Notes: a model not told the origin generated them from the sequence alone. A stretch of DNA of 64,000 nt from Gammaproteobacteria bacterium (GCA_965215225.1 OZ244039.1:687771-751770), one strand, 5' to 3'; shown: positions 1 through 35,122, counted from the first letter of the stretch. Numbers and translations: made by a program.

Positions 1-582
1 GCCTGGGCGCTTCAGCATACTAAGGAACTAGAGGATCCCGATTTTTGTACTGGTAGTCAAGAGAACAACCGTCTCTTTGTTAAGAATTTAATTGCGCTTT
101 ATGTTTGTATGGAGTCCTTATGGTTTTATACCGGCTTTGCTCAGATTCTATCAATGGGGCGGCGGAATAAGATGACTGGTATAGCGGAACAGTATCAATA
201 TATTATGAGAGATGAATCGCTTCATTTCAATTTTGGCATAGATGTGATCAACCAGATACGGATAGAGAATCCTGGCCTGTGGAGCGGTGTCTTTGAGAAG
301 GAGGTGCTGCGGATGATTCACGAGGCTTTGGAGTTGGAGATTGCCTATGCTCATGATACTATGCCGCGCAATCTATTGGGTATGAATGCCAATATGGTAG
401 AGACCTATATGAAGTATATAGCCAATCGTCGCCTCAAGCAACTTGGCTTACCGCCCGAATTTAAGGATGTATCCAATCCCTTTCCTTGGATGTCGGAGAT
501 AATGGATCTTGGCAAGGAAAAGAATTTCTTTGAAACTCGGGTAACCGATTACCAAACTGGTGGTGCTCTAGAGTGGGATTGA
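1..582 (+). CDS. nrdB: Ribonucleoside-diphosphate reductase beta subunit (class Ia R2), 5'-truncated by window edge
   Basis: Frame-1 translation is open from nt 1; C-terminal NrdB-like sequence (..[18 protein letters not shown].., [18 protein letters not shown]). The track ORF 109..582 is only the internal-Met part. Confidence 0.8.
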
Positions 583-621
583 GACAGCCTGTCTTAATCT
601 GCATTTCTTAATAAGTATTTT

Positions 622-2130
622 TTGGGGTCTATGAAATCTTTTCTTCATCGTTCTACCTCTATAGAGCGATTTGGCGTAGAGAAATTATGGGACCTTCTTA
701 TCATAGGTGGTGGGGCGGCTGGGCTGGGTTGTGCACTAGATGCGGCGCGGCGAGGCTACAAGGTTCTATTGGTGGAGAAAAGAGACTTTGCCTCTGGTAC
801 CTCAAGTCGTAGTAGCAAGATGATTCACGGCGGGGTTCGTTATCTTAAGCAAGGAAATCTCTCATTGGTTCGGAGTGCCCTGCGCGAGCGCAACCTGCTT
901 GTTCGTAATGCTCCTTCGTTAGTTAAGGAGCAGCGCTTTGTCATACCTCTTTATAGTTCAATGCAATTAGCAATCTATGCTATGGGGATGCGCTTCTATG
1001 ATACCCTGGCAAGAGGTCAGCAGATGGAGCCAAGTAAGCTTCTTTCTGTCAATCAGGTCTGCACTCAGCTGACTGGGGTTAGATCGCAAGGACTGAAAGG
1101 AGGGGTTACTTATAGTGATGGGCTGTTTGATGATGCTCGTTTGGCTCTTGCCATAGCTCAGGCTGCAACCAAACAAGGCGCTTGTCTGCTGAACTATATG
1201 GAAGCAGTGTCCTTAGTTGAAACCAGGAATGGAAGAATAGCCGGGGCTCTTATTAAGGACACATTAAGCGGAAAGGAATATGAGGTTAAGAGCAGAGGGG
1301 TCATTAATGCAAGTGGCATATTTGTTGATGAATTACTGGCTAAGACGGCTAAGGCAAGCAGGCGCCAGCGTATAAGTCAGGGAAGTCATATCTTGTTAGC
1401 AAGTGAGTTTTTGCCGGGCAAAACTGCGATGCTCATTCCTCGTACTTCTGACGGTCGGGTGCTCTTTTGTATTCCCTGGCATAATAGATTGCTGGTTGGC
1501 ACCACCGATATAGAAGTTGATAAGCCAGAGGAAGAACCTCGGCCCCAGCCACAGGAGCTTGAGTTTCTCCTTAATACCTGTGGTCATTATCTTGATAGAA
1601 AACCCAGCTCAGCAGATGTCCTAAGCACCTTTGCTGGTCAGCGCCCTCTGCCCGCGCGGCTTGGGATAGTTGCCACCAAGGATATAAGTCGCGAGCATCA
1701 ACTAGAGACCTCGCCTGCTGGCATTATTAGTATCATAGGAGGCAAATGGACAACCTATCGTGCCATTGCCGAGGATGCGGTCTTGGCTGCAGCTGCCCAG
1801 CTTGGCGATCAGCCCTCCAACCAAAACGAAGAGTTTTCTCTCAGGGTGGATTTGCCCCTTAAGGAAGAAGAACTAGACGATGAGCTAATTCATCCCAAGT
1901 TTTCCTATACCAAAGGAGATATTGTTGTCGCAGTTCGCTATGAGATGGCATATAGGCTTGCGGATGTGATGGCAAGGCGAACTCGTATGCTAATGTTGGA
2001 TGTGCGCGCCGCCCGAGAGGCCTCTTCCTCAGTGGCGAAGCTTATGGCGCAGGAGCTCAACAAGGACAATGCTTGGGTCCAGCAGCAACAAGAAGAATTT
2101 TATCGCCTCTCAGCTGGCTATCTTCCTTGA
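622..2130 (+). CDS. glpD: FAD-dependent glycerol-3-phosphate dehydrogenase
   Basis: N-terminal FAD dinucleotide fold DLLIIGGGAAGLGCALDAARRGYKVLLVEKRDFASGTSSRSSKMIHGGVRYL typical of GlpD/GlpA family; 502 aa. Confidence 0.8.
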   Translation: MGSMKSFLHRSTSIERFGVEKLWDLLIIGGGAAGLGCALDAARRGYKVLLVEKRDFASGTSSRSSKMIHGGVRYLKQGNLSLVRSALRERNLLVRNAPSLVKEQRFVIPLYSSMQLAIYAMGMRFYDTLARGQQMEPSKLLSVNQVCTQLTGVRSQGLKGGVTYSDGLFDDARLALAIAQAATKQGACLLNYMEAVSLVETRNGRIAGALIKDTLSGKEYEVKSRGVINASGIFVDELLAKTAKASRRQRISQGSHILLASEFLPGKTAMLIPRTSDGRVLFCIPWHNRLLVGTTDIEVDKPEEEPRPQPQELEFLLNTCGHYLDRKPSSADVLSTFAGQRPLPARLGIVATKDISREHQLETSPAGIISIIGGKWTTYRAIAEDAVLAAAAQLGDQPSNQNEEFSLRVDLPLKEEELDDELIHPKFSYTKGDIVVAVRYEMAYRLADVMARRTRMLMLDVRAAREASSSVAKLMAQELNKDNAWVQQQQEEFYRLSAGYLP

Positions 2131-2207
2131 GGTGCTGGTCAGATCATTTGCCTAGTCTCGGACCTGAACTCTGAGCCCAAGCAAGATAGCAAATTAAGGC
2201 AAAGAAG

Positions 2208-2750
2208 CGGAGAAAGAAGCAAAAAAGAGATAATGGAATCTTAGGAAATAATTTTCATTATTAATCAGCTATTTGCTTTATCGATGCTATAATGCAGTGA
2301 TTAATTGATAACATATGGGGGGTGCTCTCTAATGATTGGGCAAAGCCGATGTACTTATAGTGAGAACTCAGACTATGATTTTTTATCAATTAAAGCTTGA
2401 ATATAAATATGACTAGCATATAAATACAACTAACATGAAAGCTTTGATTAATTAAGAGAGTTTATGAATTTGTGGCAGATTGTGTATAAATCCCTTAATT
2501 TTTTTGATTAAATGCAATTTTTTTTCTTTTTTTATGCGTATCGCGTCTTTTTTTGTATAATCTCTTCCATGATATTAATTATTCAGCGCTTTTTAGCTAT
2601 TTGTTTTATTGATGTTAGAATGTGGCGGTCAATTGATGACATTAGGGGACCTCTCTAATGATTAGTCAGAGCCGATGCACTTATAGTGGAAATTCACACT
2701 ATAGTCTTTTCCATCAATTAAAACTTGAATATAAATACAACTAACATATA
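2208..2750 (+). repeat. Two tandem copies of a ~160-200 bp intergenic repeat module (shared segments agctatttg(c/t)tttat..tg(c/t)tataat..gattaattga..ggggacctctctaatgatt..gcacttatagtg..atcaattaaa.cttgaatataaataca) upstream of GLUG lipoprotein gene 1
   Basis: Direct comparison of 2265-2425 vs 2571-2745 vs 4950-5140; each copy contains an extended -10 (TGnTATAAT-like) box. Confidence 0.7.
2285..2293 (+). promoter_or_regulatory. Extended -10 element tgcTATAAT inside repeat module (second module has tgtTAGAAT near 2611)
   Basis: Sequence motif only; recurs in every module copy. Confidence 0.35.
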
Positions 2751-2831
2751 ATTATGAGCATGTTATATTTCTTTTTAGGCAAAGCCTTTCGTTTGGCTGG
2801 CTCTACACCCCTTCCAATTGTGCTTGGCAAG

Positions 2832-4700
2832 ATGAGGCGGTTCCTCTTCTTATTTGTTGGGGTTGGTTTCTTATCAGTTGCTCTTACTGCTTGTAGCGGT
2901 GGAAGCAATGGGGGCAGTAGCGGTTCAGGTGGGGGCAACAATCCTGCAACCAACGGCACATTGGCGACTGATGAAGAAGGCAATATGTCTGTGAGGGGGA
3001 CGGGCAATCTTTCTATGGATAACATTTCTAATACGGATGAAGGGGGAAGCGTTTCTACTGACTCCGAAGATAACTCTACCGATGAGGAGGGGGATAATGT
3101 GTCTATGGGGGATGAGGCAGGTGGCACATCGGTGATGGATGGCGAGACCAATCAATCAACAAACACGACCGAAGAAGATAATCCTATGGATAAGAAGGGA
3201 GATAATGTATCTATGGGAGATGGGGTGGGCGGGGAAGGTGACCCATCGGGCATGGGTGGCGATACTATGCCAGACGTTAATGAGCCAGATGGTGACAAAG
3301 ATGGAGTGGCGGATGAGTTGGATGTGGATAGAGATGGTGATGGATTGATAGAGATAACCACAGCGGATGGATTGAATGGGGTTCGTTATGCTTTGGATGG
3401 TAGCGGCCGTAGGCTAGCTGAAGGGGATCCGTTGAATACGGCTGGCTGTGGCAATGGTAATACCACTACTTCTTGTGTTGGTTATGAGTTGGCAGCGAAT
3501 ATAAGTCTTGCATCCTATGCGGATGCTGATGGGGGCAAAGGCTGGCAACCCTTGGGTCATGATACAAATAATGCTACAGATGGATGTCAAGGGTCTGCTT
3601 TTGATGGAATTTTTGAAGGCAATGGTTTTGTGATTAGTGATTTAAGAATTCAGCGCCTAAGAACCGATTGTGTCGGCTTGTTCGGTCATATAACTGAAAG
3701 TTCAGAGATACACAACCTGACTCTTCATGCCGATAGAGTGGCGGGTGAGGATAGTGTAGGCGCTTTGGTGGGGGATGGTTCATCGGCGGTTATTGTCTCT
3801 TCATCGGCGGAGGTGCGGAGGGTGAGTGGTTCCAGTAAGGTAGGTGGTTTGGTAGGGGATGGAACGGGCGTGCAGATTGTTAATTCTTCGATCGTGGTCG
3901 GTGAGGTGAGTGCGACCAATACGAATAGTTATGTAGGTGGTTTGGTGGGGGATGGGATGAACGCTCGGATTTTTTATTCTTTTGTTAAGGTAGGTGAGGT
4001 GAGTGGGGAGATTATGTGGGTGGGTGGTTTGATCGGCTATGGTGAAGCGGCTGAGGTTGTCTCGTCATCGGTGATAGCAAATGAGGTGGACGGGATTCGT
4101 AATGTAGGTGGTTTGATCGGCTATGGTGAAGCGGCTCAGGTTGTCTCGTCATCGGTGGTGGTCGGTAGGGTAGGTAGCACTGATCGCCGTTCGGACCAAG
4201 CTATAGGGGGACTGGTGGGCTATGGATTTGATTCGCAAATCTATTCTTCTTCGGTCGTCGCAAGGAAGGTGATTGGTTCTGATGATCAAGTAGGCGGTCT
4301 GACAGGCTATGGCCAAAGAGCGCGTGGGATTTATTCTTATGTGATCTCAAATAGCAACATCACTTTATTTGGTGCCGAGAATGGTGAGGGCGCCTATAAT
4401 AATGCCTCCTATATTAATAATCTTAGCAGCATGCCAACAGACTATACAGGGATCTATGCTTCTTGGAACAAGACAGCCGAGCCATTGGCGGTATGGTGTG
4501 ATAGGGATAATAGTGAGAGTATAGAGTCAGATGAACGAACCAATGACAATCGCATTTGGGATTTCGGCACTGAAAATGAGTATCCCGCCATTCGCTGCAC
4601 TCCCATAGCCCCTGCCGACTGGCGTGATTGGTGGTTCTTGAATAGGACGACTGGCGACCTCCAACTAGACCAAGCTCGTTTGAACGAGCTGCTTCCCTAG
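2832..4700 (+). CDS. GLUG-motif repeat lipoprotein with Asp-rich thrombospondin-type-3-like Ca-binding repeats (paralog 1)
   Basis: Signal peptide + lipobox MRRFLFLFVGVGFLSVALTAC. Acidic/Gly-Ser-rich linker. D-x-D-x-D repeats (DVDRDGDGLIE). Nine or more repeats of VGGLVG(D/Y)G..A.I..S.V.G.V (GLUG motif family). Conserved C-terminal domain shared with paralog 2 (EPLAVWCD..EYPAIRCTPI.PADWRDWWFLN). Track ORF starts at 2754 but the conserved Met is at 2832. Confidence 0.75.
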   Translation: MRRFLFLFVGVGFLSVALTACSGGSNGGSSGSGGGNNPATNGTLATDEEGNMSVRGTGNLSMDNISNTDEGGSVSTDSEDNSTDEEGDNVSMGDEAGGTSVMDGETNQSTNTTEEDNPMDKKGDNVSMGDGVGGEGDPSGMGGDTMPDVNEPDGDKDGVADELDVDRDGDGLIEITTADGLNGVRYALDGSGRRLAEGDPLNTAGCGNGNTTTSCVGYELAANISLASYADADGGKGWQPLGHDTNNATDGCQGSAFDGIFEGNGFVISDLRIQRLRTDCVGLFGHITESSEIHNLTLHADRVAGEDSVGALVGDGSSAVIVSSSAEVRRVSGSSKVGGLVGDGTGVQIVNSSIVVGEVSATNTNSYVGGLVGDGMNARIFYSFVKVGEVSGEIMWVGGLIGYGEAAEVVSSSVIANEVDGIRNVGGLIGYGEAAQVVSSSVVVGRVGSTDRRSDQAIGGLVGYGFDSQIYSSSVVARKVIGSDDQVGGLTGYGQRARGIYSYVISNSNITLFGAENGEGAYNNASYINNLSSMPTDYTGIYASWNKTAEPLAVWCDRDNSESIESDERTNDNRIWDFGTENEYPAIRCTPIAPADWRDWWFLNRTTGDLQLDQARLNELLP

Positions 4701-4744
4701 CTTCACCCGCAATGGCATAGATGAAGTATGAGGGATAAAGTAGC

Positions 4745-5140
4745 TAGATAGAAGAAGAGAAGCAAAGAAAAAATAATAGAACCTTAGCGAATAATTTCCA
4801 CTATTAATTAGCTGAAACCTTTGATTGTTCTAATTAATGAAAGATTTTTGGTGGGGTATGTTGATTATCTAATATTCATTTTTGTTTTTTTTGAATGCGG
4901 ATTTTCTTTGTATGATGTCTTTAATATGGTTAATTAATCGAAACTTTCTAGCTATTTGTTTTATTTGTGTTATAATCTAGCGATTAATTAATAGCATGAG
5001 GGGACCTCTCTAATGATTGGATGGGATTGTATAATCCCGTCCAAGAAGAGAGGTTGCACTTATGATGGAAACTCATGCTGTTAATTAGCCATTTGTTTTA
5101 TTGGTGCTATAATGCAGCTACAATTAAGATACAACCATAA
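4745..5140 (+). repeat. Further copies (1.5-2) of the promoter-bearing intergenic repeat module, here carrying an inserted ~46-bp IS30-family terminal-IR fragment (5020-5065)
   Basis: agctatttgttttatttgtgttataat..ggggacctctctaatgatt + tggatgggattgtataatcccgtccaagaagagaggttgcacttat (matches outer end of the IS30 copies at 35.1/36.2 kb) + partial copy with tgctataat at 5105-5113. Confidence 0.65.
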
Positions 5141-5321
5141 TTGACTTATGTTCGTAAATACAATATTTTTTGGGGGGAGGAAAGCCTTTCGTTTGGCTAA
5201 AGGCTCTTATTTAGCTTTAGATGCCTATTCTTTTATGCCTTCTCTATTTAGGCTTCTATTCGGCCGCTTCTTTATTATGCCCTCTGCCTCTTTTGTGTCT
5301 TTTCCGATTTTGCTTGGCAAG

Positions 5322-7346
5322 ATGAGGCGATTTCTCTTCTTCTTAGTTGGGGTTGGTTTCTTATCAGTTGTTCTTATTGCTTGTGCTGGCGGCGGGGGAG
5401 GTTCAAGCAGCGGTTCGGGCAGTGACAGTTCGGAAGATGATCCGTTTGTCTTAGCATTCAGTCCTTTTGATGGAGGGGTTAATATTACTTTGACAAATGG
5501 GGCGGCCTATGCTGGTAGGAACATAACGGCTGTCCGTATTGACGCCACTTCTTATAAAGTGAATGGGGATGCTGCTCGATTTATGCAGAGGCCAGATATT
5601 TCGTTGGAGGATTTGATATCGGGTTATACTTTCACGGGTCTTATGTCGGGGGAGGAATATAAATTTGATTTTTTCTATGAAGAGACCTTGGTGAATGGCA
5701 CTCAGGTTGAGAGGGAGATAGAGTGGGAGCCGGTAGCGCGGAATTTGGCGGACTATAATGATACGGCAGATGGTTCGGTTCGTGGGCGGATAGCCATAGG
5801 GGAGGATGGAGACGGCAATGGCATAGCGGATTTTTTAGATGAGAAGTTAGCGGGGGGTCCAGGGACTGATCCGGGAACAGGTGGTCCCAGTGATGACGAT
5901 GGTGATGGCAGGGCGAATGCTGCGGATAATTGCCCGCTTGTTGCCAATGCTCCACAGACTGATACTGATGGGGATGGTGCCGGCGATGCTTGTGATGTAG
6001 ATGATGATGGCGATGGGTTGATAGAGATAGCTACAGCAGAGGAATTGAATTCAGTTCGCTATGCTCTAGATGGCAGTGGGCGTAGGTCATTGGATGGTGG
6101 GGCGCTCGACTCCACTGGCTGTGGTGATGGCACTACCACTTCTTGTTCTGGCTATGAGCTGGTTGCGGATATAAGTCTTGCAACCTATGCGGATGCTGAT
6201 GGCGGTAAAGGCTGGCAACCATTAGGGCATGATACAGGTAGTGGCGGCGGATGTCAAGGAACTGCTTTTAGTGGGATTTTTGAAGGCAATGGCTGGACGA
6301 TTAGCAATTTAAGCATTAGTCGTTCAGGTCAGGATTGTGTGGGCATGTTTGGCCATATAGCTGATAATTCAGAGATTCGCAATCTGACTCTTCGTGCCGA
6401 AGCAGTGATAGGTAGGATTGGAGTAGGCGGTCTGGTGGGAAATGGTGGAAATGCTCGGATTGTTTCTTCTTCGGTTGTGGCGGGTGAGGTGAAGGGGACT
6501 GGTGCTAATAGTGTAGGCGGTTTGGTGGGGTTTGGTCAATTGGTTTGGATTCATTCTTCATCGGTTGTGGTGGGTGAGGTGAGTGGGGGTGACGACGTAG
6601 GTGGTTTGGTGGGGTTTGGTCCAGGTGCTCAGATTCATTCTTCTTCGGTTGTGGTGGGTAGAGTGAGAAAGATTGGTAGTGGGCTAGCAAAGGAGATAGG
6701 TGGTCTGATGGGAGATGGTCAATTGGCTCGGATTCATTCTTCATCGGTTGTGGTGGATGAAGTGCGCGGGGGTAGCCGTGATGCTATAGGCGGTTTGATA
6801 GGGAATGGTAATGATGCTCGGATTGTTTCTTCTTCGGTTATGGTAGGTCAGGTGATAGGAAGTGGTTTTGTAGGTGGTCTGGTAGGAAGCTTTGAAAAGG
6901 GCAAGGTTGCTTATTCTTATGTGGTCTCAGGCAGTAATATTAGTATGCTGGTTGATCGAAGCCAAGATGCTCTTGGAGTTGCTTCTTATTGGGACAGTGA
7001 TACTAGTGGGGTCACTAGTGGAAACATCGGTGATCCTCAGACCACTAGTAAGCTTCGCACTCCAACTGACTATACAGATATTTATGCCAGTTGGGTCGAG
7101 GATATGGATATATTTGGCAATGAGGACGAGCCATTGGCGGTTTGGTGTGATGAGGATCATAGTGGGAGCATTGAAGAGGATGAAAAAATCGATGCCAATC
7201 TTATCTGGAATTTCGGCACGAATACGGAGTATCCCGCCATTCGCTGCACTCCCATCCGTCCTGCCGACTGGCGTGATTGGTGGTTCTTGAATGCGACTGG
7301 CAAACCCCAACTAAACCGGGATCGTCTGAACGAGCTGCTTCCTTAA
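5322..7346 (+). CDS. GLUG-motif repeat lipoprotein with thrombospondin-type-3-like Ca-binding repeats (paralog 2)
   Basis: MRRFLFFLVGVGFLSVVLIAC lipobox. DTDGDGAGDACDVDDDGDGLIE Ca-binding repeats. Multiple VGGLVG.G..ARI.SSSVV.GEV GLUG-like repeats. Same C-terminal domain as paralog 1. Conserved 5' leader aaagcctttcgtttggct in both genes. Track start 5148 probably too far upstream. Confidence 0.75.
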   Translation: MRRFLFFLVGVGFLSVVLIACAGGGGGSSSGSGSDSSEDDPFVLAFSPFDGGVNITLTNGAAYAGRNITAVRIDATSYKVNGDAARFMQRPDISLEDLISGYTFTGLMSGEEYKFDFFYEETLVNGTQVEREIEWEPVARNLADYNDTADGSVRGRIAIGEDGDGNGIADFLDEKLAGGPGTDPGTGGPSDDDGDGRANAADNCPLVANAPQTDTDGDGAGDACDVDDDGDGLIEIATAEELNSVRYALDGSGRRSLDGGALDSTGCGDGTTTSCSGYELVADISLATYADADGGKGWQPLGHDTGSGGGCQGTAFSGIFEGNGWTISNLSISRSGQDCVGMFGHIADNSEIRNLTLRAEAVIGRIGVGGLVGNGGNARIVSSSVVAGEVKGTGANSVGGLVGFGQLVWIHSSSVVVGEVSGGDDVGGLVGFGPGAQIHSSSVVVGRVRKIGSGLAKEIGGLMGDGQLARIHSSSVVVDEVRGGSRDAIGGLIGNGNDARIVSSSVMVGQVIGSGFVGGLVGSFEKGKVAYSYVVSGSNISMLVDRSQDALGVASYWDSDTSGVTSGNIGDPQTTSKLRTPTDYTDIYASWVEDMDIFGNEDEPLAVWCDEDHSGSIEEDEKIDANLIWNFGTNTEYPAIRCTPIRPADWRDWWFLNATGKPQLNRDRLNELLP

Positions 7347-7577
7347 ACTAACGACCTGCTTTGGTTAGTCTCTTGGCTTCAACAGCTTCAATCTAATGGT
7401 CTTCCCCAACTAGACCAAACTCGTTGGGAACCAGCTGCTTCCTTCCTTATAAACTGACAACTGACTGCTGGTTAATTTTATTTAAATTAGGGCAACTTCA
7501 AAATATTGTTTCTATATTGTTATAGGATTGCTATAGAAACATTCTTTGATTAGAATAGAATATAACTCTTTTAGCCA

Positions 7578-8165
7578 ATGCATAAACTTTTTACCAATTG
7601 GGCAAGCCTGCCAAATATTCTTACCTATTTAAGAATAGGCGCCATTATATTGGTGGTCTTCTTCTACTACCTCCCCTGGGAATGGAGTCATTGGACGGCG
7701 GCGGGCATTTTTGTTATTGCGGCGGTTACTGATTGGATGGACGGTTATCTGGCTAGGATATGGAAGCTGAGAACGGCTTTGGGGGAATTTCTTGATCCGC
7801 TTGCCGATAAATTACTGATATCCATAAGCCTTATTCTTCTAGTGCAGGCCTATGATAATCTATTGGCGACTCTCATTGCGATGGTCATTATTGGGAGGGA
7901 GCTGAGTGTGATGGCGCTGCGCGGCCTATTGGCAAAGGAAGAGGGAGTTAAGTTGATGATGGGAAGGATTCCAGTTAGTGTTTGGGGTAAGGCTAAGACC
8001 TTTCTTCAGATGTTGGGGATTGCTTGCTTCTTGGCGTTTCCTCCACAAGAAGAGTCCTTATTGCCTGATTGGATTGCCCTGGCTATTCTGACGCTGGCAG
8101 CCTTTATGACTCTTTTATCCGCTTTTCTTTATGGCAGGACCCTGTGGCAGTCAAAAGATGAGTGA
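7578..8165 (+). CDS. pgsA: CDP-diacylglycerol--glycerol-3-phosphate 3-phosphatidyltransferase
   Basis: [10 protein letters not shown]...[10 protein letters not shown]...[13 protein letters not shown]-alcohol phosphatidyltransferase motif; 195 aa. Confidence 0.8.
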
Positions 8166-9351
8166 TATTCAAAAGATAGTTCTTGCCTATTCGGGTGGGC
8201 TAGATACTTCGGCTATTGCCCTGTGGCTACAGGAGGAGTATGATTGTGAGGTGATTGCTTTCACCGCTGACTTGGGTCAAGGAGAGGAGATTGAGGAAGC
8301 TCGTAATAGAGCCCATCAGGCGGGTATAGAGAAGATATATATAGAAGATCTGCGTGAAGAATTTGTTCGTGACTATGTTTTTCCGATGCTGAGGAGCAAT
8401 GCAGTTTATGAAGGGGAGTATCTATTAGGAACAGCCATTGCCCGCCCGCTTATTACTAAAAGACTAGTTGAGATAGCAAAAGAGTCTAAGGCCGAGGCCA
8501 TAGCTCATGGGGCAACTGGCAAGGGGAATGACCAGATTCGCTTTGAGTTGGGCGCTGCTGCTCTGGCGCCCGAACTAAGAGTCATTGCTCCTTGGCGAGA
8601 GTGGTCTTATGGCTCCCGTGCTGAGTTGGTTGCATTCTGTCGTAAGAGAGGAATGCAATTTAGTGATAAAGGCTCTCTCTACTCTATGGATGCTAATCTG
8701 TTTCATATTTCTTATGAAGGCTATGAACTGGAGAATCCAGCTAATCCACCTGATGAAGCCATGTGGCAAAGGACAGTTTCTCCCCAACAGGCAGCGGATA
8801 GAATTATTGAAATTGATATAGAGTTTGAAAGAGGCGATCCTTGTGGCTTGAATGGCGCTAGGATGTCGCCAGCTGAGCTTTTGACTGAGCTAAATCGTTT
8901 AGGAGGGGAAAATGGCATAGGGAGGGTGGATATAGTAGAGAATCGCTATATAGGAATGAAGTCGCGCGGCTGTTATGAGACTCCTGGCGGGACTATCTTG
9001 CTGAGGGCGCATAGGGCGATGGAGTCGTTAACTTTGGATGCCAAGCTCGCTCATCTTAAGGATTCTATTATGCCAACCTATGCCGAGCTGATTTATAATG
9101 GCTACTGGTGGGCTGGCGAACGCCAAGCGCTTCAACAGCTCATTGATTATAGCCAGAAAAATGTAACTGGGCGGGTGCAGGTTCAGCTCTATAAGGGGAA
9201 TGTTACCATTGTAGGACGCCATTCTCCTCATAGTCGCTATGATGAGAAGACTGCTACCTTTGAAGACGGCGGAGGGTCTTATGACCATAAGGATGCAGCT
9301 GGGTTTATCCGCCTTAATGCACTACGTTTTTTACATCAAAAAAGGGCATAA
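8158..9351 (+). CDS. argG: Argininosuccinate synthase
   Basis: [14 protein letters not shown]-loop, ..[20 protein letters not shown].., ~400 aa; start placed at MSDIQK (8158) rather than track 8131 which overlaps pgsA. Confidence 0.85.
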
Positions 9352-9355
9352 GCTT

Positions 9356-10312
9356 ATGACATCTATGGATCAATTAAAGGGGGTCATTTGGTTGGACGGT
9401 AAGATGGTGGATTGGCAGCAGGCTCAAGTCCATGTTCTCACTCATACTTTACACTATGGGCTCGGGGTTTTTGAAGGGGTTCGTGTTTATCCTACCGCCA
9501 AAGGAAGCGCTATCTTTCGTTTGGGAGAGCATACTAAAAGGTTGTTCGACTCTGCTCATATCCTTAATATGAAGATACCTTTCAGTTATGAGGATATTTT
9601 TCAAGCTCAGGTGGAGTCGGTGAGAGCCAATAAAGTAAAGCAAGGCTATATCCGACCCATGTGCTTTTATGGTAGTGAGGAAATGGGGTTGCGCGCCAAG
9701 AATCTGACCGTTCGGACTATGATAGCAGCTTGGGAATGGCCTTCTTATATGTCGCCTGAAGCACTAAAGAACGGTATTAAGGTGCGCACTTCTTCTTATA
9801 CCCGCCATCATGTCAATATTACTATGTGTAAAGCCAAGTCCAATGGTAATTACATCAATTCCATTCTTGCTCTTGAGGAGGCTCAGGCCTGTGGTTGCAC
9901 TGAGGCGCTTATGCTTGATAACGAGGGTTATGTGGCGGAAGGAACTGGCGAGAATGTGTTTATGGTAATTGATGGCGCCCTTCACACCCCGACTCTTACC
10001 TCTTGTCTTAATGGGATTACGCGGCGGACCATCATTGCCCTGGCTAAGGATCTGAACATAGAGTGTGTTGAAAGACAGATTACTCGTGATGAGCTCTATA
10101 TTGCTGACGAAGCCTTCTTTTGCGGGACAGCTGCCGAGGTGGTTCCTATTCATAGCTTAGATGGTCGCACTATCGGCAATGGCAAATGCGGTCAGCTCAC
10201 CAGAAGGCTACAAAGTCTTTACTTCGATTGTGTGATGGGCAAACAGTCTCAGTATGAAAGCTGGCTAACCTATGTAGATGCAGATAAGGCAGCTTATTCT
10301 AAGCAGGGTTAA
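9356..10312 (+). CDS. ilvE: Branched-chain amino acid aminotransferase (class IV PLP enzyme)
   Basis: WLDGKMVDWQQAQVHVLTHTLHYGLGVFEGVRVY.., ..ADEAFFCGTAAEV..; start chosen at MTSMDQ (9356) just after argG stop. Confidence 0.75.
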   Translation: MTSMDQLKGVIWLDGKMVDWQQAQVHVLTHTLHYGLGVFEGVRVYPTAKGSAIFRLGEHTKRLFDSAHILNMKIPFSYEDIFQAQVESVRANKVKQGYIRPMCFYGSEEMGLRAKNLTVRTMIAAWEWPSYMSPEALKNGIKVRTSSYTRHHVNITMCKAKSNGNYINSILALEEAQACGCTEALMLDNEGYVAEGTGENVFMVIDGALHTPTLTSCLNGITRRTIIALAKDLNIECVERQITRDELYIADEAFFCGTAAEVVPIHSLDGRTIGNGKCGQLTRRLQSLYFDCVMGKQSQYESWLTYVDADKAAYSKQG

Positions 10313-10595
10313 GGATCGCTTTAACCCGCTCCATTATGAACTGGTTAATGAGAGCAATCAGCATCTTAGTGGTCGGCAAAATGGTCACGCTGAGACTCAC
10401 TTTAAGCTGGTTGTGGTGAGCGAGAGCTTTTCCTCTTTGAGTCCTATTGAACGCCATAGAGAAGTCTATAGGCTATTAGATGATCTGCTTGCTAAACAGG
10501 TTCATGCTCTTTCATTGCATCTCTTCTCTCCATCTGAGTGGAAAAATACTGTTCCCACTTCTCCACCTTGCGCCCATCAGCCAAAGGAGGCTTGA
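10278..10595 (+). CDS. BolA family transcriptional regulator / stress-morphogene protein
   Basis: HYELVNESNQHLSGRQNGHAETHFKLVVVSESFSSLSPIERHREVYRLLDDLLAKQVHALSLH matches BolA fold signature; overlaps ilvE 3' end. Confidence 0.65.
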   Translation: MQIRQLILSRVKDRFNPLHYELVNESNQHLSGRQNGHAETHFKLVVVSESFSSLSPIERHREVYRLLDDLLAKQVHALSLHLFSPSEWKNTVPTSPPCAHQPKEA

Positions 10596-10611
10596 TATTG
10601 CTTCCCTCATA

Positions 10612-10743
10612 TTCGCTCTGATATGAAGAAGAAAGTCTTGTGTTCTTGGGATAGTATTAAGGGTCATAAACCCGTTCCCTCATATTCGCTCTGATATGAA
10701 GAAGAAAGTCTTGTGTTCTTGGGATAGTATTAAGGACCGCGAA
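10612..10743 (+). repeat. 66-bp direct tandem duplication encompassing the start codon region of the downstream gene
   Basis: ccctcatattcgctctgatatgaagaagaaagtcttgtgttcttgggatagtattaagg occurs twice (from ~10612 and ~10678); first copy gives a 24-codon dead-end ORF, second copy starts the real CDS. Confidence 0.8.
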
Positions 10744-12312
10744 CCCCTTCCCTTCCTAGTAGCCAATGTGGATATCATGGCTATTCGTTATGATGACAAG
10801 GTTTCAGTTCTCTATGGCAGATGCTTGCACCGCGGCGCTATGTTGGTAGATGGTTCTATTGATGGGGATAATATTGTCTGTGGGGTTCACGGTTGGGATT
10901 TTCGTTATGATACTGGCATTAGTTCTTACAACAAGAAAGAAAGGCTACACAAGTTTACCGCTGGAGTAGAGGACGGCAAACTATGGGTGGATGAGGATGA
11001 GATTGCAGCCTGGGAACATACTAATCCCCAGCCCTATAAGAGAACTGAATATCTAGGGCAATATGCAGACTATAGCAGCAAGGAACTTAGGTCTGCCGAA
11101 CCCCATAATAAAGCCATTCAGAATCTTGCCAAACATGGCCTACAAGGGATGCACGGTGAGATGACGGCTATGGGCGTGCCATGGGACCAGCTGCCCAGAT
11201 GGGATGACATCCAATTCATCACTGCCCAGCTGCACCGGCTACCTCTCTTAGACCAGGATAAGGTTGGCACAGAGCTAATCATAGGAAAGACAGCTAAGAA
11301 GCCATTGGTATTAAAGATTCCCCTGCTGGTTTCGGACATGAGCTTTGGCGCCCTCTCCGCTGAGGCGAAAGAAGCCTTAGCCACGGGCGCCGAACTGGCG
11401 GGCACTGGCATATGCAGTGGTGAGGGTGGAATGTTACCCCAAGAGAAGAAGGCAAATTCGCGCTATTTCTACGAGCTGGCTTCTGCTCGTTTCGGTTTTT
11501 CTATGGCTAAGGTCAAGCAATGCCAAGCCTTCCATTTCAAAGGGGGGCAGGCTGCCAAGACCGGCACCGGCGGCCATCTTTCTGGTAACAAGGTCACTGA
11601 GGAGATTGCCAAGGTGAGAGGTCTTAAGAAGGGCAGTGCCGCTATCTCTCCATCTCGTTTCCCCGACTGGACTTCTCTTTCTCAGCTACGCGATTTTGCC
11701 GCTCAGGTCAGTGAGGAGACAGGTGGCATTCCTATTGGCTATAAGCTCTCAGCCCAGCATATAGAGAAGGATATAGATGCGGCTCTGGATATAGGAGTTC
11801 ACTATATTATCTTGGATGGCAGAGGAGGAGCGACTGGCGCCGCGCCTGTTATCTTTCGCGACAATATTTCCGTGCCTACCATCCCTGCCTTGGCTCGCGC
11901 TAGGCGTCATCTTGATCTCTTAGGCCGCTCGGACCTCACGCTTATTATCACCGGTGGGCTGAGAACCCCAGCTGATTTTGCTAAGGCTCTAGCCCTGGGT
12001 GCAGATGGCATTGCCCTATCCAATGCCGCCATTCAAGCCATTGGTTGTCTTGGTATGAGAGCCTGTCATACCAATAATTGTCCGGTCGGCATAGCAACTC
12101 AGAGAAAGGATCTGCGTGCCCGTCTCATAGTCAAGGAATCGGCTAAGCGGTTGGCAAGCTTCTTTGATGCATCGGTCAAGCTCATGCAGGTTATGGCACG
12201 CGCCTGTGGTCATGAGCATCTCAATCAATTCAACTCTGCCGACCTTACTAGCTTCAATCGCGACATAGTCGATTTGACTGGCATAGCCTATGGAGGAGTG
12301 GCTCGGGCTTAG
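10696..12312 (+). CDS. Rieske [2Fe-2S] domain fused to glutamate-synthase-like FMN-binding domain (GltB domain-2 / COG0069 family) oxidoreductase
   Basis: N-terminal CLHRG..CGVHGW Rieske box; central ..VSDMSFGALS..GEGG.. and ..HYIILDGRGGATGAAP.. motifs of GltS FMN domain. Confidence 0.65.
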   Translation: MKKKVLCSWDSIKDREPLPFLVANVDIMAIRYDDKVSVLYGRCLHRGAMLVDGSIDGDNIVCGVHGWDFRYDTGISSYNKKERLHKFTAGVEDGKLWVDEDEIAAWEHTNPQPYKRTEYLGQYADYSSKELRSAEPHNKAIQNLAKHGLQGMHGEMTAMGVPWDQLPRWDDIQFITAQLHRLPLLDQDKVGTELIIGKTAKKPLVLKIPLLVSDMSFGALSAEAKEALATGAELAGTGICSGEGGMLPQEKKANSRYFYELASARFGFSMAKVKQCQAFHFKGGQAAKTGTGGHLSGNKVTEEIAKVRGLKKGSAAISPSRFPDWTSLSQLRDFAAQVSEETGGIPIGYKLSAQHIEKDIDAALDIGVHYIILDGRGGATGAAPVIFRDNISVPTIPALARARRHLDLLGRSDLTLIITGGLRTPADFAKALALGADGIALSNAAIQAIGCLGMRACHTNNCPVGIATQRKDLRARLIVKESAKRLASFFDASVKLMQVMARACGHEHLNQFNSADLTSFNRDIVDLTGIAYGGVARA

Positions 12313-12374
12313 GTGACTTCATTGATGGCAGATTAATTTATGTCTTCAGTATTCACTTTTGCGGGACAAACTAT

Positions 12375-28855: not shown

Positions 28856-30241
28856 TTAGCTAGGCCGGTTCAATTTGGCAATCAATAAAGTAAGGGCGCA
28901 AGATACTAAGGATGCCGCTAGAAAAGATTGCAACCACCCGCTGCCAAGAAAGTGAGGGATAAGAGGAGAGAAATCTGGCTTGGGCATAAATAGTATTCCA
29001 GCAGCAATCCCACCTACACATCCGAACAATGCGCTTGCCTCATTGATCCTTTTGTTGTAAAGACCATAGAAAAGCGGAAAAGCCATGCCAGCACAGAGCA
29101 TATCGGCTATCAGAAAGAGATAAAGGACACTATAGCCGGGGACGGCAACTAGAATAGCCAAAATGGTAAGGATTGAAGTCGCCCAACGGGATATCCTAAT
29201 GACCTTTGAGCTTGATTCAATATGAGAGTTGCGTTGCTGAAGTAGCGGCTGCAGAGGTTGAACTATCAAACCAGCAAGCGCATTAAGCAAAGAATCTAAA
29301 CTACTCATCACCAATAACACTGCCAGAATGAGAAGCAACAGGATGAGCCAAACGGGCGCCAAACTATTCACCAGCTCAAACATTGCAGTCTCTGGATGTC
29401 TAGGCGAAAGATCGCCAATTAAGAAACCGAAGCTACCAGCTAAGAAGATGAGAGGTATCATAGCAATACCAGCAATGAGAAAAGATACCCTAAGGGTCTT
29501 ATCGTTGCGACAAGCATAGGCTCTTTGCCATAGGCTCTGATTGAAAAGCTGAGCAGCTACTATCGCAATAATGAGTGTTAGAGCAAAAGTCCAGCCGGGC
29601 AAGTAGGCCGTTCTAAATGCCACTGCTGGCATCTCTTTCGTCTGTAATAGAATAAAGAGGAAAACCAGAATGAGTAGCGGCACTAGTATGCTGAGTTGAA
29701 TCTTATCTGTGAAAACAACTGCTTGAAACCCTCCACGATTAGTATAGGCCCAGGTGGCAATGGCAATGATCGGCACAGTGATGCTTAAAGGAATCTGAGC
29801 TAAAACACTCACCGCCTTTCCTATGGCAGTCAATTCTGCGGTGAGGAATATAAACATATAGAAAAGACAAATAACTAAAACAGCACTTGCCATCTTCCTC
29901 CCATAGCGTTCTTGCGCCCATTGGGGCAGACTGGTGGTCTGTGGCATGAGCCTTAACAACCTCACTCCCAGCACCGCAATCAGAATAAGCGGCAACGCTT
30001 GCCCCAATGCATAGCCTCCCAAAGCAATAATACCAAATTGGATGGTTGTCTCTACTGGTGTAAAGAGTATCCAAACTCCAGCAGCAGAAGCCACAATAGT
30101 AGCGATTGAGGCAAGAGTATTCAGTGACCTCTTAGGAAAAATAAACTCCAGCCCCGCTCCCTCTCTTTTAGCCATAAACACCCCAGCACCAGCCATCAAC
30201 CCAGCAACAACAACCACAGCAAAAAGATAAAAGATACTCAT
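28856..30241 (-). CDS. Sodium:solute symporter family (SSS) transporter
   Basis: RGGFQAVVFTDKIQ SSS signature, 13-14 TM. Confidence 0.65.
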   Translation of the reverse strand: MSIFYLFAVVVVAGLMAGAGVFMAKREGAGLEFIFPKRSLNTLASIATIVASAAGVWILFTPVETTIQFGIIALGGYALGQALPLILIAVLGVRLLRLMPQTTSLPQWAQERYGRKMASAVLVICLFYMFIFLTAELTAIGKAVSVLAQIPLSITVPIIAIATWAYTNRGGFQAVVFTDKIQLSILVPLLILVFLFILLQTKEMPAVAFRTAYLPGWTFALTLIIAIVAAQLFNQSLWQRAYACRNDKTLRVSFLIAGIAMIPLIFLAGSFGFLIGDLSPRHPETAMFELVNSLAPVWLILLLLILAVLLVMSSLDSLLNALAGLIVQPLQPLLQQRNSHIESSSKVIRISRWATSILTILAILVAVPGYSVLYLFLIADMLCAGMAFPLFYGLYNKRINEASALFGCVGGIAAGILFMPKPDFSPLIPHFLGSGWLQSFLAASLVSCALTLLIAKLNRPS

Positions 30242-30345
30242 ATCGGGTTTAGTATATCCTATTGATTTGATCTAATAGGTTGTTTAGCTTGTAGTTTGTA
30301 AGATATCCAACAAACTCTATTCACATTTGATCTAATAGTTTTTGG

Positions 30346-30560
30346 GAATTATATCCAATCTTCCACAAAAGAGAATATTATGAAAAAAGAGCCCCGAAGT
30401 GAAGGAGTCATAAAAAGCGAGACCATTTACGGTCAGACCTTCCGCTAATAGAGGAGGCGAAGTTGACCGCTTTACAGATTTTCTTTTACAGACGCTCATC
30501 AAAAAGAGAGTGAACTAAGAGGATTTATGGATTTGTGGAAGATACTATGTAATTCCCTAG
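30346..30560 (+). mobile_element. MITE-like ~220-bp repeat element, copy B (ORF disrupted)
   Basis: Inverted copy of 16676-16905; same terminal inverted repeats; immediately abuts minisatellite. Confidence 0.6.
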
Positions 30561-31860
30561 TTTTTTTTAGCTTGTAGTTTGTGTAGTTTGTATAGGAGTT
30601 TGTCTTTCCCTTTCTTCACAGCCGCTACCTCTTATTCCTTTCTATTGCCAAGTTGGTATAGGGTTTTGTTTTCCCCTTTCTTTACAGACGCCACCTCTTA
30701 TTCCTTTCTATTGTCAAGTTGGTATAGGATTTTGTCTTTTCCCTTTCTTCGCAGCCGCCGCATTCCTTTATATTGTTAAGTTTGTATAGTTTTTGTCTTT
30801 TCCCTTTCTTCGCAGCCGCCGCATTCCTTTATATTGCTAAGTTTGTATAGGATTTTGTCTGTCCCTTTCTTCGCAGGTATTCATCTACAAGAGTTTACTT
30901 AGTTTGTAATTTGTATAGTTGTATAGGTTCTTGTCTTTCCCTTTCTTCGCAGGTATTCATCTACAAGAGTTTATTTAGTTTGTAATTTGTATAGTTGTAT
31001 AGGTTTTTGTCTTCCCCTTTCTTCGCAGCCGCCTCATTCCTTTATATTGCCAAGTTTGTATAGTTTTTGTCTTTTCCCTTTCTTCGCAGGTATTCATCTA
31101 CAAGAGTTTATTTAGTTTGTAATTTGTATCGGATTTTGTCTTTCCCTTTCTTCGCAGGTATTCATCTACAAGAGTTTATTTAGTTTGTAATTTGTATCGG
31201 ATTTTGTCTTTCCCTTTCTTCGCAGGTATTCATCTACAAGAGTTTATTTAGTTTGTAATTTGTATCGAATTTTGTCTTCTCCCTTTTCTTCACAGCCGCC
31301 CCCTCTCATTCCTTTCTATTGCCAAGTTTGTATAGTTTGTGTGGGGTTTTGTCTTTCCCCTCTTTTTTTCACAGGTATTTATCTATAAGAGTTTATTTAG
31401 TTTGTAGTTTGTATCGAATTTTGTCTTCCCTCTTTTTTTTCACAGCCGCCCCCTCTCATTCGTTTTTATTGCCAAGTTTGTATAGGTTTTTGTTTGTCCC
31501 TTTCTTCGCAGCCGCCGCATTCCTTTATATTGCCAAGTTTGTATAGGTTTTTGTCTTTCCCCTTTCTTCGCAGCCGCCGCATTCCTTTATATTGTTAAGT
31601 TTGTATAGTTTTTGTCTTTTCCCTTTCTTCGCAGCCGCCGCATTCCTTTATATTGCTAAGTTTGTATAGGATTTTGTCTGTCCCTTTCTTCGCAGGTATT
31701 CATCTACAAGAGTTTATTTTGTTTGTAATTTGTATAGTTGTATAGGTTTTTGTCTGTCCCTTTCTTTACAGTCGCCGCATTCCTTTATATTGCCAAGTTT
31801 GTATAGGATTTTGTCTTTCCCCTTCTTCACAGGTATTGATATATAAGAGCGTGAGTTTAC
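30560..31860. repeat. Complex non-coding minisatellite, ~20 units of two interleaved unit types (~61 bp ..tttgtctttccctttcttcgcagccgccgcattcctttatattgccaagtttgtatag.. and ~80 bp ..ttcgcaggtattcatctacaagagtttatttagtttgtaatttgtat..)
   Basis: Direct reading; pyrimidine-rich strand bias; only short spurious ORFs. Confidence 0.85.
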
Positions 31861-32051
31861 ATCCTAAGTGCAATACCTCAAGATTATAATTTGGCAACTG
31901 GTGTGGCACTAGTGGTGGGAATTTGCTTGATGTAAATTCATTCATAAATGATATAATACTCGTATAGCGAAAACTAAAAAGTAAGTCAATTTTTACAAGT
32001 TAATCAAAACTTTGATGGTAAAATTACTTTCATCAATATTATAAGGAGCTT

Positions 32052-33359
32052 ATGATAAGATATTTATTCAGACTGCTTGCCTCTTTCTTTACTAGGGCGT
32101 TTGCCTTTTTTATCAGTGTGGTAGTCTTTCTTATCAGGCAGTTCGTACTCTTTATCAGGCAGCTTGTTTTCTTTGTCAAGCAGCTCGTTTTTTTCTTGAT
32201 CAGGCAGCTCAAGTCTTTATACAGGCAACTCGTTTTCTTTATCAAGCAGCTAGTCTCTTTCTTGATCAGGCAGCTCAACTTTCTCGTTACCAAGGTGCCC
32301 AAGTCGCTCGTGCCTTTCATTGCTGAGAAATTTGGGCCATTTTTGTTAGAGCGGTCTCTCCCTTTCTTTATTGGTGCTGGTATTACAGCGGGGACTACCA
32401 TTCCTTATTATGAGTTTCGTGATGATTCAAAAGTACTCACAAAAATTGAAGCATTGCTTAGGAAAATTGACACTATTTCCGGCACCGTTAACAGGACTGA
32501 AGACACTGTTGAAGGAATATTGGCAAACATTACTTCTACTTTAAACATCACTGCCGAGAATCAGATAGTCATTAGAAGTATATCGGCAAACATTAGCTCT
32601 ATTTCCGACATCACTGCCAAGAATGAGATAGCCATTAGAAATATATCGGTAAAGATTGACTCTATTTCCAACACCACTGCCAGGAACGAGAGAGCTATTG
32701 GAGATATATCGGCAGACATTAGTTCTGTATCGAATTATGTTGTCAATAATATTAATAAGACATTAGCTTTCGCTATTCATACTAAAACTGTAGAGATAGA
32801 TCAAATGAATCAAACTATAAATCAAATCATGAGTCAGGCAAAGGATCAAGGGAAAAAAATGTATAGAAGCAATCAAGAAAAATACCAAGAGTATATAGAC
32901 GCTTTACTTAAAAGACAAGGACAATTAGAAAAAGAAGGGAAGGAACTTAGGCAAAAAAGAGATGAGTTTTTGAAAGACCCTTTAAAACCCCTCAATATGT
33001 ATAATAATGATCCTGATGAAATAGCTTCATCGTCTAACTCTATCGAAGAGTTTAATAGAGCCCAAGATAAGTTTATTGTTTACATAACGGATCCAAAGAC
33101 GAAAAACCTTCCTAAGGCAATTCCCCTGATAGTTAATAATAGGGCAGTGCTACTTAATAGGGCGGTGCCAGTTAGACGTGAAATGGGAAAAATGTCATCT
33201 TCAAGCAGCAGTTGCCCATCAAGAGGGCAAGGGATTTTTCTCGGGGAGCTTCTTGATCCTAAAACGAGGAACCCTTTTAGCATCTATAACAGCAATCAGC
33301 CTTTCTTTCTCAATAATGGGATAGGACTAAATAATAGGTGCTTTCTTTATCTCCCTTAG
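32052..33359 (+). CDS. Hypothetical repeat-containing protein
   Basis: 435-aa ORF immediately downstream of the minisatellite. N-terminal 21-nt (7-aa, (I/V)(R/K)QLVFF) tandem repeats. Internal 60-nt/20-aa repeats (I..NISSISDITAKNEIAIRNIS). K/E-rich predicted coiled coil. Coding status not certain. Confidence 0.4.
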   Translation: MIRYLFRLLASFFTRAFAFFISVVVFLIRQFVLFIRQLVFFVKQLVFFLIRQLKSLYRQLVFFIKQLVSFLIRQLNFLVTKVPKSLVPFIAEKFGPFLLERSLPFFIGAGITAGTTIPYYEFRDDSKVLTKIEALLRKIDTISGTVNRTEDTVEGILANITSTLNITAENQIVIRSISANISSISDITAKNEIAIRNISVKIDSISNTTARNERAIGDISADISSVSNYVVNNINKTLAFAIHTKTVEIDQMNQTINQIMSQAKDQGKKMYRSNQEKYQEYIDALLKRQGQLEKEGKELRQKRDEFLKDPLKPLNMYNNDPDEIASSSNSIEEFNRAQDKFIVYITDPKTKNLPKAIPLIVNNRAVLLNRAVPVRREMGKMSSSSSSCPSRGQGIFLGELLDPKTRNPFSIYNSNQPFFLNNGIGLNNRCFLYLP

Positions 33360-33969
33360 GAAGTCCGAGGATCTATTTACTACTCTAATATCCACTTTAA
33401 GGGTTTATTTTTATTCAAAACAAGATGTATCTATGTTTTTTCAAAGATCATCAGGCGGCATTAAGTTATATGTATCTATAACAGAGATCCATCTCCCATA
33501 GTAATCATAATGGAATGTCGTCCGGGGTGGTGGCGATTTGTTTAGTCTTTTTGCCCCCTTTTGTTTATTCAGCCTTATTATTTGGACTGATCCGCGGGCA
33601 GCTTTTTATTTGGATCTAAGTGCAATGGCTTTGTCCTTCACTATGACAATACCTGCCGCCTTGAGCAGAGATATTGTCATTAGTCCGTAAGAAGGGCTTG
33701 ACCGCACCAATAATACTCAAAAAAACAATCATTGTAAATATTGCTACCATTAGGTGCGAGCAGCAAGAGAACCAACCGTCATTTCATAAGGAAACGAAAC
33801 GGTATGACCCTAATGGAAGCAATTAATCATTAGAAGTCGTCGCCTTGTCTGTTGTCATTCACAAAGGCAATAATTCCCTCTTTTTAAATGCAAATTCGTG
33901 ACTAAGAAACTTGTAAAGAAATGTTTTTTTATTGCTAATTTTAGTTTCTTATGATATAATGGCTTCATT

Positions 33970-35106: not shown

Positions 35107-35122
35107 GAAGTAAATTCACGAA

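Follow-up and report, generated by a model that had tools for sequence, protein, structure and literature searches.

Positions 2832-7346 of a 64,000-nt stretch of gammaproteobacterial DNA (GCA_965215225.1 OZ244039.1:687771-751770; the whole stretch is referred to as the window below) hold two tandem genes, A and B, which are paralogs and belong to a family of predicted lipoproteins with at least 58 members on a single contig. From the anatomy of these genes, the size of the family, a fold model and a comparison with a very close sister genome, we consider it fairly probable that A and B represent a multigene family, shaped by recombination, of GLUG beta-helix lipoproteins that are anchored in the outer membrane, stabilised by Ca and serve as a coat or as adhesins.

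Both genes are found in raw open reading frames (ORFs) on the same strand (2754-4700 and 5148-7346), and each ORF has an internal MRRFLF start that is followed by a hydrophobic stretch and L-T/I-A-C. Initiation at this site places gene A at 2832..4700 (plus strand, 622 aa) and gene B at 5322..7346 (plus strand, 674 aa). A preliminary description of the locus had the ORFs and coordinates right, while its lengths of 623 and 675 aa included the stop codon. The two N-terminal signals (MRRFLFLFVGVGFLSVALTAC in A and MRRFLFFLVGVGFLSVVLIAC in B) consist of MRR, a hydrophobic core and L-[TI]-A-C, with the cysteine at residue 21. Using a rule-based reading (lipobox [LVI][ASTVI][GAS]C, Cys within about 15-35 residues, positively charged n-region), we found the charged n-region, the hydrophobic h-region and the lipobox of signal peptidase II (SPII) substrates in A and B alike, in agreement with the lipoprotein signals that had been proposed for both. 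The lipobox Cys is aligned in 110 of 121 family members, with the box reading LTAC or LIAC in 97, and the residue at position +2 after the Cys is Ala or Ser.

In gene A, the signal peptide and lipobox (2832-2894) are followed on the plus strand by an acidic low-complexity Ser/Gly/Asn/Asp stalk (~2895-3332), a DxDxDG cap and N-cap (from 3333), the GLUG rungs (~3669-4379) and a C-terminal cap (~4419-4697). Gene B, read in the same direction, has a signal peptide and lipobox (5322-5384), an Fn3-like beta-sandwich (~5445-5801), a TSP3/disordered acidic linker (~5832-5999), a beta-helix (~6000-7001) and a C-terminal cap with an EF-hand-like loop (~7002-7343). A Ser/Gly/Asp-rich disordered stalk had been ascribed to both proteins; it is long in A, whereas B has a short Gly/Ser linker that leads into the folded Fn3-like beta-sandwich, a domain overlooked earlier. 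On global alignment the two proteins share 55% identity over 584 columns and are near-identical in the signal peptide, the core N-cap and the last ~90 residues; this method was used instead of BLASTP, which under composition filtering aligned the signal peptide only. At the DNA level, identity amounts to 90% in the signal-peptide block (83 nt), ~69% in the core and 81-82% at the 3' end.

A search with B returned 2,291 proteins at E ≤ 1e-3 among 8,000 scored candidates, and the 732-aa raw ORF of B was found at 100% identity on a 2,317,988-bp contig. Among the 120 best matches to B, 57 lie on this same contig and 29 on a contig of 1,806,920 bp. Together with gene A, this gives at least 58 paralogs on one contig, a lower bound as it is drawn from those best 120 matches, and they take up 130.6 kb or 5.6% of the contig. 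The other paralogs are located elsewhere on the chromosome, singly or in pairs, amid housekeeping genes. Across the family, the region between lipobox and core ranges from about 40 to 353 aa. Its modules fall into three types, namely low-complexity stalks of Ser/Gly/Asn/Asp/Met, TSP3 arrays rich in Cys, and a domain ('LTFAPI') that is Fn3-like. Downstream of this region the N-cap is the most conserved segment among the paralogs, with a mean identity of 69%.

The body of the proteins consists of tandem ~28-aa units with a G-L-x-G core, as in GLUG repeats. Across the 58 paralogs we counted 353 units with the consensus VGGLVGxGxsArIxSSSVVvgeVsGxxx and a period of 28-29 (spacing 28 or 29 in 231 of 295 cases). 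Including the first CVGxFG rung, A has eight rungs and B seven, so the 9-11 repeats suggested in the preliminary description were an overcount, while the assignment to the GLUG type holds at family level: PF07581 is matched in 6 of the 58 same-contig paralogs at E ≤ 0.01 (best E 8.1e-10), precomputed PF07581 matches are on record for several relatives, and the predicted fold is a beta-helix. For the pair itself, the Pfam scan proposed earlier gave a split result. A matched GLUG with 18.4 bits (E 0.0029), under the gathering cut-off of 20.5, and had no match to TSP_3, having the DxDxDG cap only; B had no GLUG match and passed TSP_3 (PF02412, cut-off 25) in two stretches with 28.1-28.5 bits. TSP_3 is matched in 13 of the 58 same-contig paralogs (best E 1.8e-26), some of which contain long Cys-rich arrays, and NCBIfam yielded partial matches of the TSP3 type only, such as that of B to MtsC (NF047638) with 40 bits against a cut-off of 350. 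Neither A nor B matched Pfam fn3, and neither reaches any Pfam or NCBIfam cut-off for the helix-and-caps unit; only the optional TSP_3 of B does pass. The putative Ca-binding motifs seen earlier in both proteins are supported. Besides TSP_3 in B and the DxDxDG cap, 106 of 121 members, B (CDEDHSGSIEEDE) among them, match positions 1-12 of the EF-hand pattern PS00018 (tested as D-x-[DNS]-x-[DENSTG]-[DNQGHRK]-x-[LIVMC]-x-x-x-[DE]), with the qualification that A has Glu at position 6 of this EF-hand-like loop and B misses PROSITE position 13.

An AlphaFold2 model of B built from 121 family sequences (overall predicted local distance difference test score (pLDDT) 83, predicted template modelling score 0.70) comprises disordered residues 1-36 (signal and tether), a beta-sandwich (42-160), an acidic disordered TSP3 linker (171-207), a regular beta-helix (233-560, pLDDT mostly >90) and a well-packed C-terminal segment (~610-670, pLDDT 91-97). 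In a Foldseek comparison with the PDB, the sandwich had Fn3 domains as top matches (probability ~1.0, template modelling score on the target up to 0.67), at a weak E of ~1e-2. The helix aligned over 558 columns with the Gemella haemolysans IgA1 protease (7uvk), again at a weak E value (1.6e-2). Among viral models (BFVD), there were five matches at E ≤ 1e-3, and GLUG-type matches, with E values from 4.5e-9 to 6.6e-6; two of the proteins found are from phaeoviruses, and another, from a phage, is annotated as a 'putative immunoglobulin A1 protease'. The modelled fold is thus consistent with the right-handed beta-helix of the GLUG-containing IgA1 protease. PDB sequence searches with the family profile or the helix alone yielded only weak TSP3 or spurious matches.

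The C-terminal module contains the invariant residues C609, D610, E621, N626, W629, F631, G632, Y637, P638, C642 and W654 together with the loop CDxDxSGxIxxxE, which bears out the earlier proposal of a highly conserved module (81-82% nucleotide identity between A and B) with two invariant cysteines, C609 and C642. Exactly six core cysteines are present in 85 of the 94 members with an identified core start motif. The module had also been regarded as a novel domain, a view that has to be abandoned. Folded alone, it reaches a pLDDT of only 54, compared to >90 inside the full B model, and hence it is better described as a cap that packs on, and depends on, the helix. Furthermore, it is widespread: of 1.84 billion cluster representatives searched with a profile of the module, 1,401 matched at E ≤ 1e-3 (71 at E ≤ 1e-30), and relatives of other lineages also close the helix with a W-x-F-G-x-x-x-Q/E-Y-P-x-L motif. 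Many of these 1,401 matches come from giant proteins (1,300-7,300 aa) that contain several units each. Up to seven complete tandem helix-plus-cap units, or up to 23 partial matches, occur within such proteins, which include a match of 7,295 aa. The tandem arrangement indicates that the lipoprotein is one architecture among several in which this widespread unit is used.

The sister locus L002 (ENA ERZ25070776, contig_12) is syntenic with the window, with a FAD-dependent oxidoreductase upstream and pgsA, argG, an ilvE-like gene and bolA downstream, and carries three family genes, g1-g3 (648, 707 and 732 aa), where the window has two. By blastn, window 1-5401 aligned to L002 2113-7515 with 97.2% DNA identity, window 4661-5401 to L002 9517-10251 with 96.2%, window 5994-12351 to L002 10841-17224 with 93.7%, and window 5994-7442 also to L002 8105-9552 with 84.6%. 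No DNA match to window 5402-5993 (plus strand), which encodes the N-terminal module of B (Fn3-like domain and short TSP3), was found anywhere in the 22 kb of the sister locus; in place of this module, g2 and g3 have a ~200-aa Cys-rich TSP3 array. The ortholog of gene A, g1, shares 90% protein identity with it. Copy number and module content thus both differ between very close (~97% identical) strains, and the proposal that the locus is prone to gene gain and loss is borne out by three copies against two between ~97% identical flanks.

A footprint of such events lies directly behind gene B, where a remnant of the 3' end of a third copy had been noted as 45 bp at 7400-7445. The remnant is real and comprises 37 nt of family 3'-terminal coding sequence at 7406..7442 on the plus strand (89% identity to 4661-4696, E 3.6e-6), with similarity running on to ~7470 in a 3'-untranslated-region (UTR)-like stretch. 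The same stub is present in L002. In this locus, the stub after g2 leads directly into a full intergenic copy and g3, which identifies it as a duplication junction with its 5' boundary in conserved 3'-terminal gene sequence. Comparable stubs, made up of the last 37-63 nt of coding sequence and the 3'-UTR-like stretch, follow paralogs elsewhere (four after one L082 paralog and two after the other), and their recurrence supports the inference of repeated gain and loss and makes it generalisable.

Amino-acid change in the family genes is also several times as fast as in the genes around them. Ratios of non-synonymous to synonymous substitution rates (dN/dS, Nei-Gojobori) are 0.55 for A and g1, 0.60 for the B core and g3 and 0.62 for g2 and g3, compared to 0.03-0.21 for five flanking housekeeping genes, four of which have a similar dS. 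Replacements are concentrated in the repeat region and, there, at non-structural positions of low information content. Between A and g1, they affect 33 of 94 such positions versus 6 of 84 others (p=4e-6); in the register-corrected comparison of B and g3, the corresponding numbers are 38 of 93 and 6 of 84 (p=1e-7). A caveat to these ratios is that identity to L002 is mosaic when window 1-3300 is compared with 3300-12351: it reaches ~99.6% in the left flank and upstream of A, where the oxidoreductase has a dS of 0.0085, and genes to the right have a dS of 0.10-0.19, a pattern that suggests recent recombination with a boundary in or close to gene A. A further family pair in the sister genome (L083, 15327-21944) immediately follows nqrA-nqrB, in the place expected for nqrC-F, and consists of a 665-aa protein and a 1,705-aa double-unit protein with two matches to the C-terminal cap; its position suggests an insertion into or beside the operon.

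Relatives in other lineages were sought in 185,579 species genomes. While a scan of their contigs with the B sequence alone found no relative, a scan with a degenerate pattern derived from the family alignment succeeded and yielded more than 206 relatives, at identities of only 29-41%; the figures that follow cover the 80 relatives kept. Fifteen loci lie in one gammaproteobacterial chromosome of ~2.06 Mb and eight in another of 1.86 Mb, many are found in metagenome-assembled genomes (MAGs) of Ca. Porisulfidus, Ca. Oxydemutatoraceae and Dehalococcoidia, and single loci occur in Leptonemataceae, Desulfobacteraceae, Thalassotalea loyana and Bermanella. The Dehalococcoidia relatives end with a hydrophobic segment and a basic tail, which fits an extracytoplasmic domain. 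The best match in the scan was the JAAOII01 lineage, which is reported to occur in sediment close to sponges and in metagenomes of sponges and molluscs (PMC13393909), and Porisulfidus is described as a known sponge symbiont (PMC12988363). The names of MAGs with relatives thus hint at a life with sponges or other invertebrates. Judged by these relatives, the source bacterium of A and B is probably marine and associated with invertebrates or sponges.

The regions upstream of A and B contain a promoter-like module with an extended -10 element (TGCTATAAT) at 2267..2293 on the plus strand, and a pattern search located further copies at 2595-2621, 4950-4976 and 5087-5113. With two copies before each gene, the module (AGCYATTTGYTTTATYGRTGYTAKAAT) gives four matches versus none expected in shuffled sequences, and a role as a promoter appears plausible from its sequence. 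It is also present upstream of g1-g3 in L002, while no exact copy was found upstream of the dispersed L082 and L083 paralogs, and hence it seems to be specific to the locus or to a subfamily. A generic consensus scan of the upstream regions for promoters and terminators performed no better than with shuffled sequences, and the leaders had no match in Rfam. Each promoter-like copy is followed by a module of ~65-75 nt that resembles the terminal repeats of an insertion-sequence (IS)-like element: a palindromic copy of ~75 nt lies at 5001..5075 (plus strand; blastn matches to 35063-35118 and 36162-36225) and partly deleted copies at 2319-2384 and 2645-2710. The IS-like element itself, at ~35045-36245, has ~75-nt inverted terminal modules with an internal hairpin in each, and the N-terminal half of its ORF (35123-36166) looks transposase-like by eye. 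Both leaders further share a conserved short palindrome (AAAGCCTTTCGTTTGGCT; 2781-2804 and 5181-5207, 89% match) that might fold into a small 5'-UTR hairpin.

In the model that we favour, A and B would be exported with an SPII signal peptide and acylated at the lipobox Cys, followed by a flexible Gly/Ser tether and an exchangeable membrane-proximal module, which could be an Fn3-like domain, an acidic stalk without order or a Ca-binding TSP3 array rich in Cys. The constant body would be a GLUG-type beta-helix, right-handed and with about 7-8 rungs, opened by a DxDxDG Ca-type cap and closed by a disulfide-containing C-terminal cap with an EF-hand-like loop. We envisage these proteins as coat molecules or adhesins that have no enzymatic role, are stabilised by Ca and sit on the envelope of a marine gammaproteobacterium, which probably lives with invertebrates or sponges. 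Diversity may arise by three routes: duplication and deletion between the conserved 5' (leader, signal) and 3' (tail) sequences, swapping of N-terminal modules, and fast amino-acid replacement at solvent-facing rung positions; host cells or phages could be the selective agent. A more far-reaching proposal, which we put forward tentatively and regard as rather doubtful, is that the family is an undescribed symbiosis determinant, a hypervariable repertoire of GLUG-helix surface lipoproteins of marine-invertebrate and sponge symbionts from several phyla, which would bind host matrix or evade phagocytosis or phage adsorption and exchange N-terminal modules in a cassette-like manner via 5' leader and 3' tail repeats, leaving 3' stubs behind.

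Several points weigh against a surface-exposed, diversifying coat. Its conserved part would be distal to the lipid anchor and its swapped module proximal, which is the reverse of many immune-evasion proteins. Relaxed constraint or gene conversion would account for a dN/dS that is raised but below 1 as well as diversifying selection does, ratios of this size are no proof of positive selection, and B and g3 may owe their relationship to conversion and not be strict orthologs. Searching the PDB with the B model, Foldseek returned no match at E ≤ 1e-3. Finally, we saw no export partner (Slam or a type II secretion system) within the window, and by the Lol rules of E. coli, Ala or Ser at position +2 sends lipoproteins by default to the periplasm-facing inner leaflet of the outer membrane, so that this would be the default expectation for A and B in a gammaproteobacterium.

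This last point leads to an alternative in which the family members are periplasm-facing outer-membrane lipoproteins with a structural or tethering function, expanded by neutral or selfish duplication near IS-like repeats. The default sorting signal, the IS-end-like modules upstream of both genes and a dN/dS below 1 are consistent with this idea, as is the TSP3 linker, given that TSP3 repeats are known from the periplasmic linkers of OmpA-like proteins. However, 58 intact paralogs that fill 5.6% of a small genome are hard to explain without selection, the replacements concentrate at exposed repeat positions, and extracellular proteins are where modules of the Fn3-like and TSP3 kinds are typically found. 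In addition, the homologous domains of the monoderm Dehalococcoidia have C-terminal membrane anchors, which implies that they face outwards. We therefore consider a periplasmic orientation unlikely.

We see an equally low probability for programmed antigenic or phase variation, in which one expressed gene or a few would be rewritten by conversion from donors or switched on and off; the preliminary description had suggested an antigenic-variation cassette. Several features would suit such a system. The 5' leader/signal block is conserved (90% of nucleotides between A and B, ~89-92% with a dispersed paralog), as is the 3' tail, stubs of 3' ends pile up past paralogs (one in the window, four and two in L082), and module swapping and copy-number change have occurred between ~97%-identical genomes. 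The conserved blocks at the two gene ends may guide an exchange of modules; the dispersed L083 copies show only partial leader/signal similarity by blastn. On the other hand, A, B, g1-g3 and the dispersed L082 and L083 copies are all full-length with a signal peptide, promoter-like modules precede A, B and g1-g3, and neither promoterless silent cassettes nor a single expression site were seen in the copies examined, which are dispersed amid housekeeping genes. Neither an invertible element nor a site-specific recombinase adjoins the genes. Between strains, the upstream regions are 98-99.6% identical and differ in a single homopolymer, a poly-T tract (T7 vs T8), which is the kind of change that phase variation might exploit, and the only one. 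The copies examined thus lack the features that define a programmed cassette and give it no support.

Lipoprotein-anchored beta-helix enzymes, for instance polysaccharide lyases or hydrolases with glycans of the host or of algae as substrates, are very improbable: the right-handed beta-helix is indeed the fold of pectate lyases and phage tailspikes, and the high conservation of the N-cap could be read in this way, but A, B and the paralogs match no enzyme family in Pfam or NCBIfam, no PDB sequence relative was found, the best fold matches are GLUG-type non-catalytic domains and not lyases, and 58 near-redundant enzymes would be unusual.

Further along the window, a giant array resembling clustered regularly interspaced short palindromic repeats (CRISPR) extends over 37627-63929, to or past the window end, with ~399 copies of the repeat GTTGTGATTTGCGGGCGCTCTCCGATGAGTTAAAAT at a period of ~66 (TRF). 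It contains no real ORFs, the listed ones being the repeat translated periodically, and its ~26 kb of spacers imply very heavy exposure to phages or mobile elements. Beside the IS-like element and this array, a stretch of low G+C content (30000-34000, 37% vs ~46% elsewhere) may be foreign DNA; its 435-aa ORF (32052-33359) had no match in Pfam.

With ~5.6% of a 2.3-Mb genome spent on at least 58 copies of one lipoprotein design, the investment in the cell surface would be heavy, and if exposed, these proteins are prime candidates for attachment, recognition or evasion, with marine-invertebrate hosts, or the phages implied by the CRISPR-like array, as targets. They also mark a gap in annotation. 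The composite unit of DxDxDG cap, GLUG helix and EF-hand-like C-cap is common (1,401 clusters for the cap alone), yet in neither A nor B does it reach a Pfam or NCBIfam cut-off, so that most family genes go unnamed. Its building blocks, namely lipobox, GLUG helix, TSP3 and Fn3-like domains, are known. In the literature searched (GLUG in sponge symbionts and the MAGs of the relatives), we found no description of the family, in which these blocks are combined in at least 58 lipoproteins that vary between strains in copy number and modules, in the small genomes of this lineage.

Among known systems, the GLUG domains of the IgA1 metalloproteases (7UVK) come closest, sharing a ~28-aa rung repeat with G-G-L-x-G, PF07581 matches at family level and an alignable beta-helix. 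The enzymes of streptococci and Gemella are anchored in the Gram-positive, LPXTG manner, whereas the A/B family uses a lipobox, has no protease domain, adds DxDxDG and EF-hand-like caps as well as six conserved cysteines, is present in at least 58 copies in one genome and, in most of its members including B, remains under the Pfam threshold. A second group are bacterial TSP3 proteins such as the Myxococcus cell-cell cohesion protein MtsC, the TSP3 stretch of which B matches with an E value of 1.7e-10 and 40 bits. However, this match spans only ~45 residues and stays far from the cut-off of 350, B has no MYXO-CTERM, and TSP3 is optional in the A/B family (13 of 58). At the level of gene organisation, the family is reminiscent of the variable surface lipoprotein multigene families of Borrelia (Vsp/Vlp, vls) and Mycoplasma (Vsa/Vlp). 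Common to them are many paralogous lipoprotein genes, a signal or 5' block more conserved than the body within subfamilies and, in what would be a likeness of mechanism, recombination footprints and copy-number differences between close strains. Unlike these families of vertebrate pathogens, the A/B family belongs to what would be an invertebrate-associated gammaproteobacterial lineage, has no sequence or fold relationship to them, and has no single expression site, silent cassettes or signs of switching. Finally, the eukaryotic-like proteins of sponge symbionts (ankyrin, Fn3, cadherin and leucine-rich repeat proteins) resemble A and B in the Fn3-like and TSP3 modules and in that the A/B relatives are concentrated in MAGs of sponge-associated lineages (PMC12988363), whereas the constant body of the family, the GLUG helix with its caps, is bacterial.

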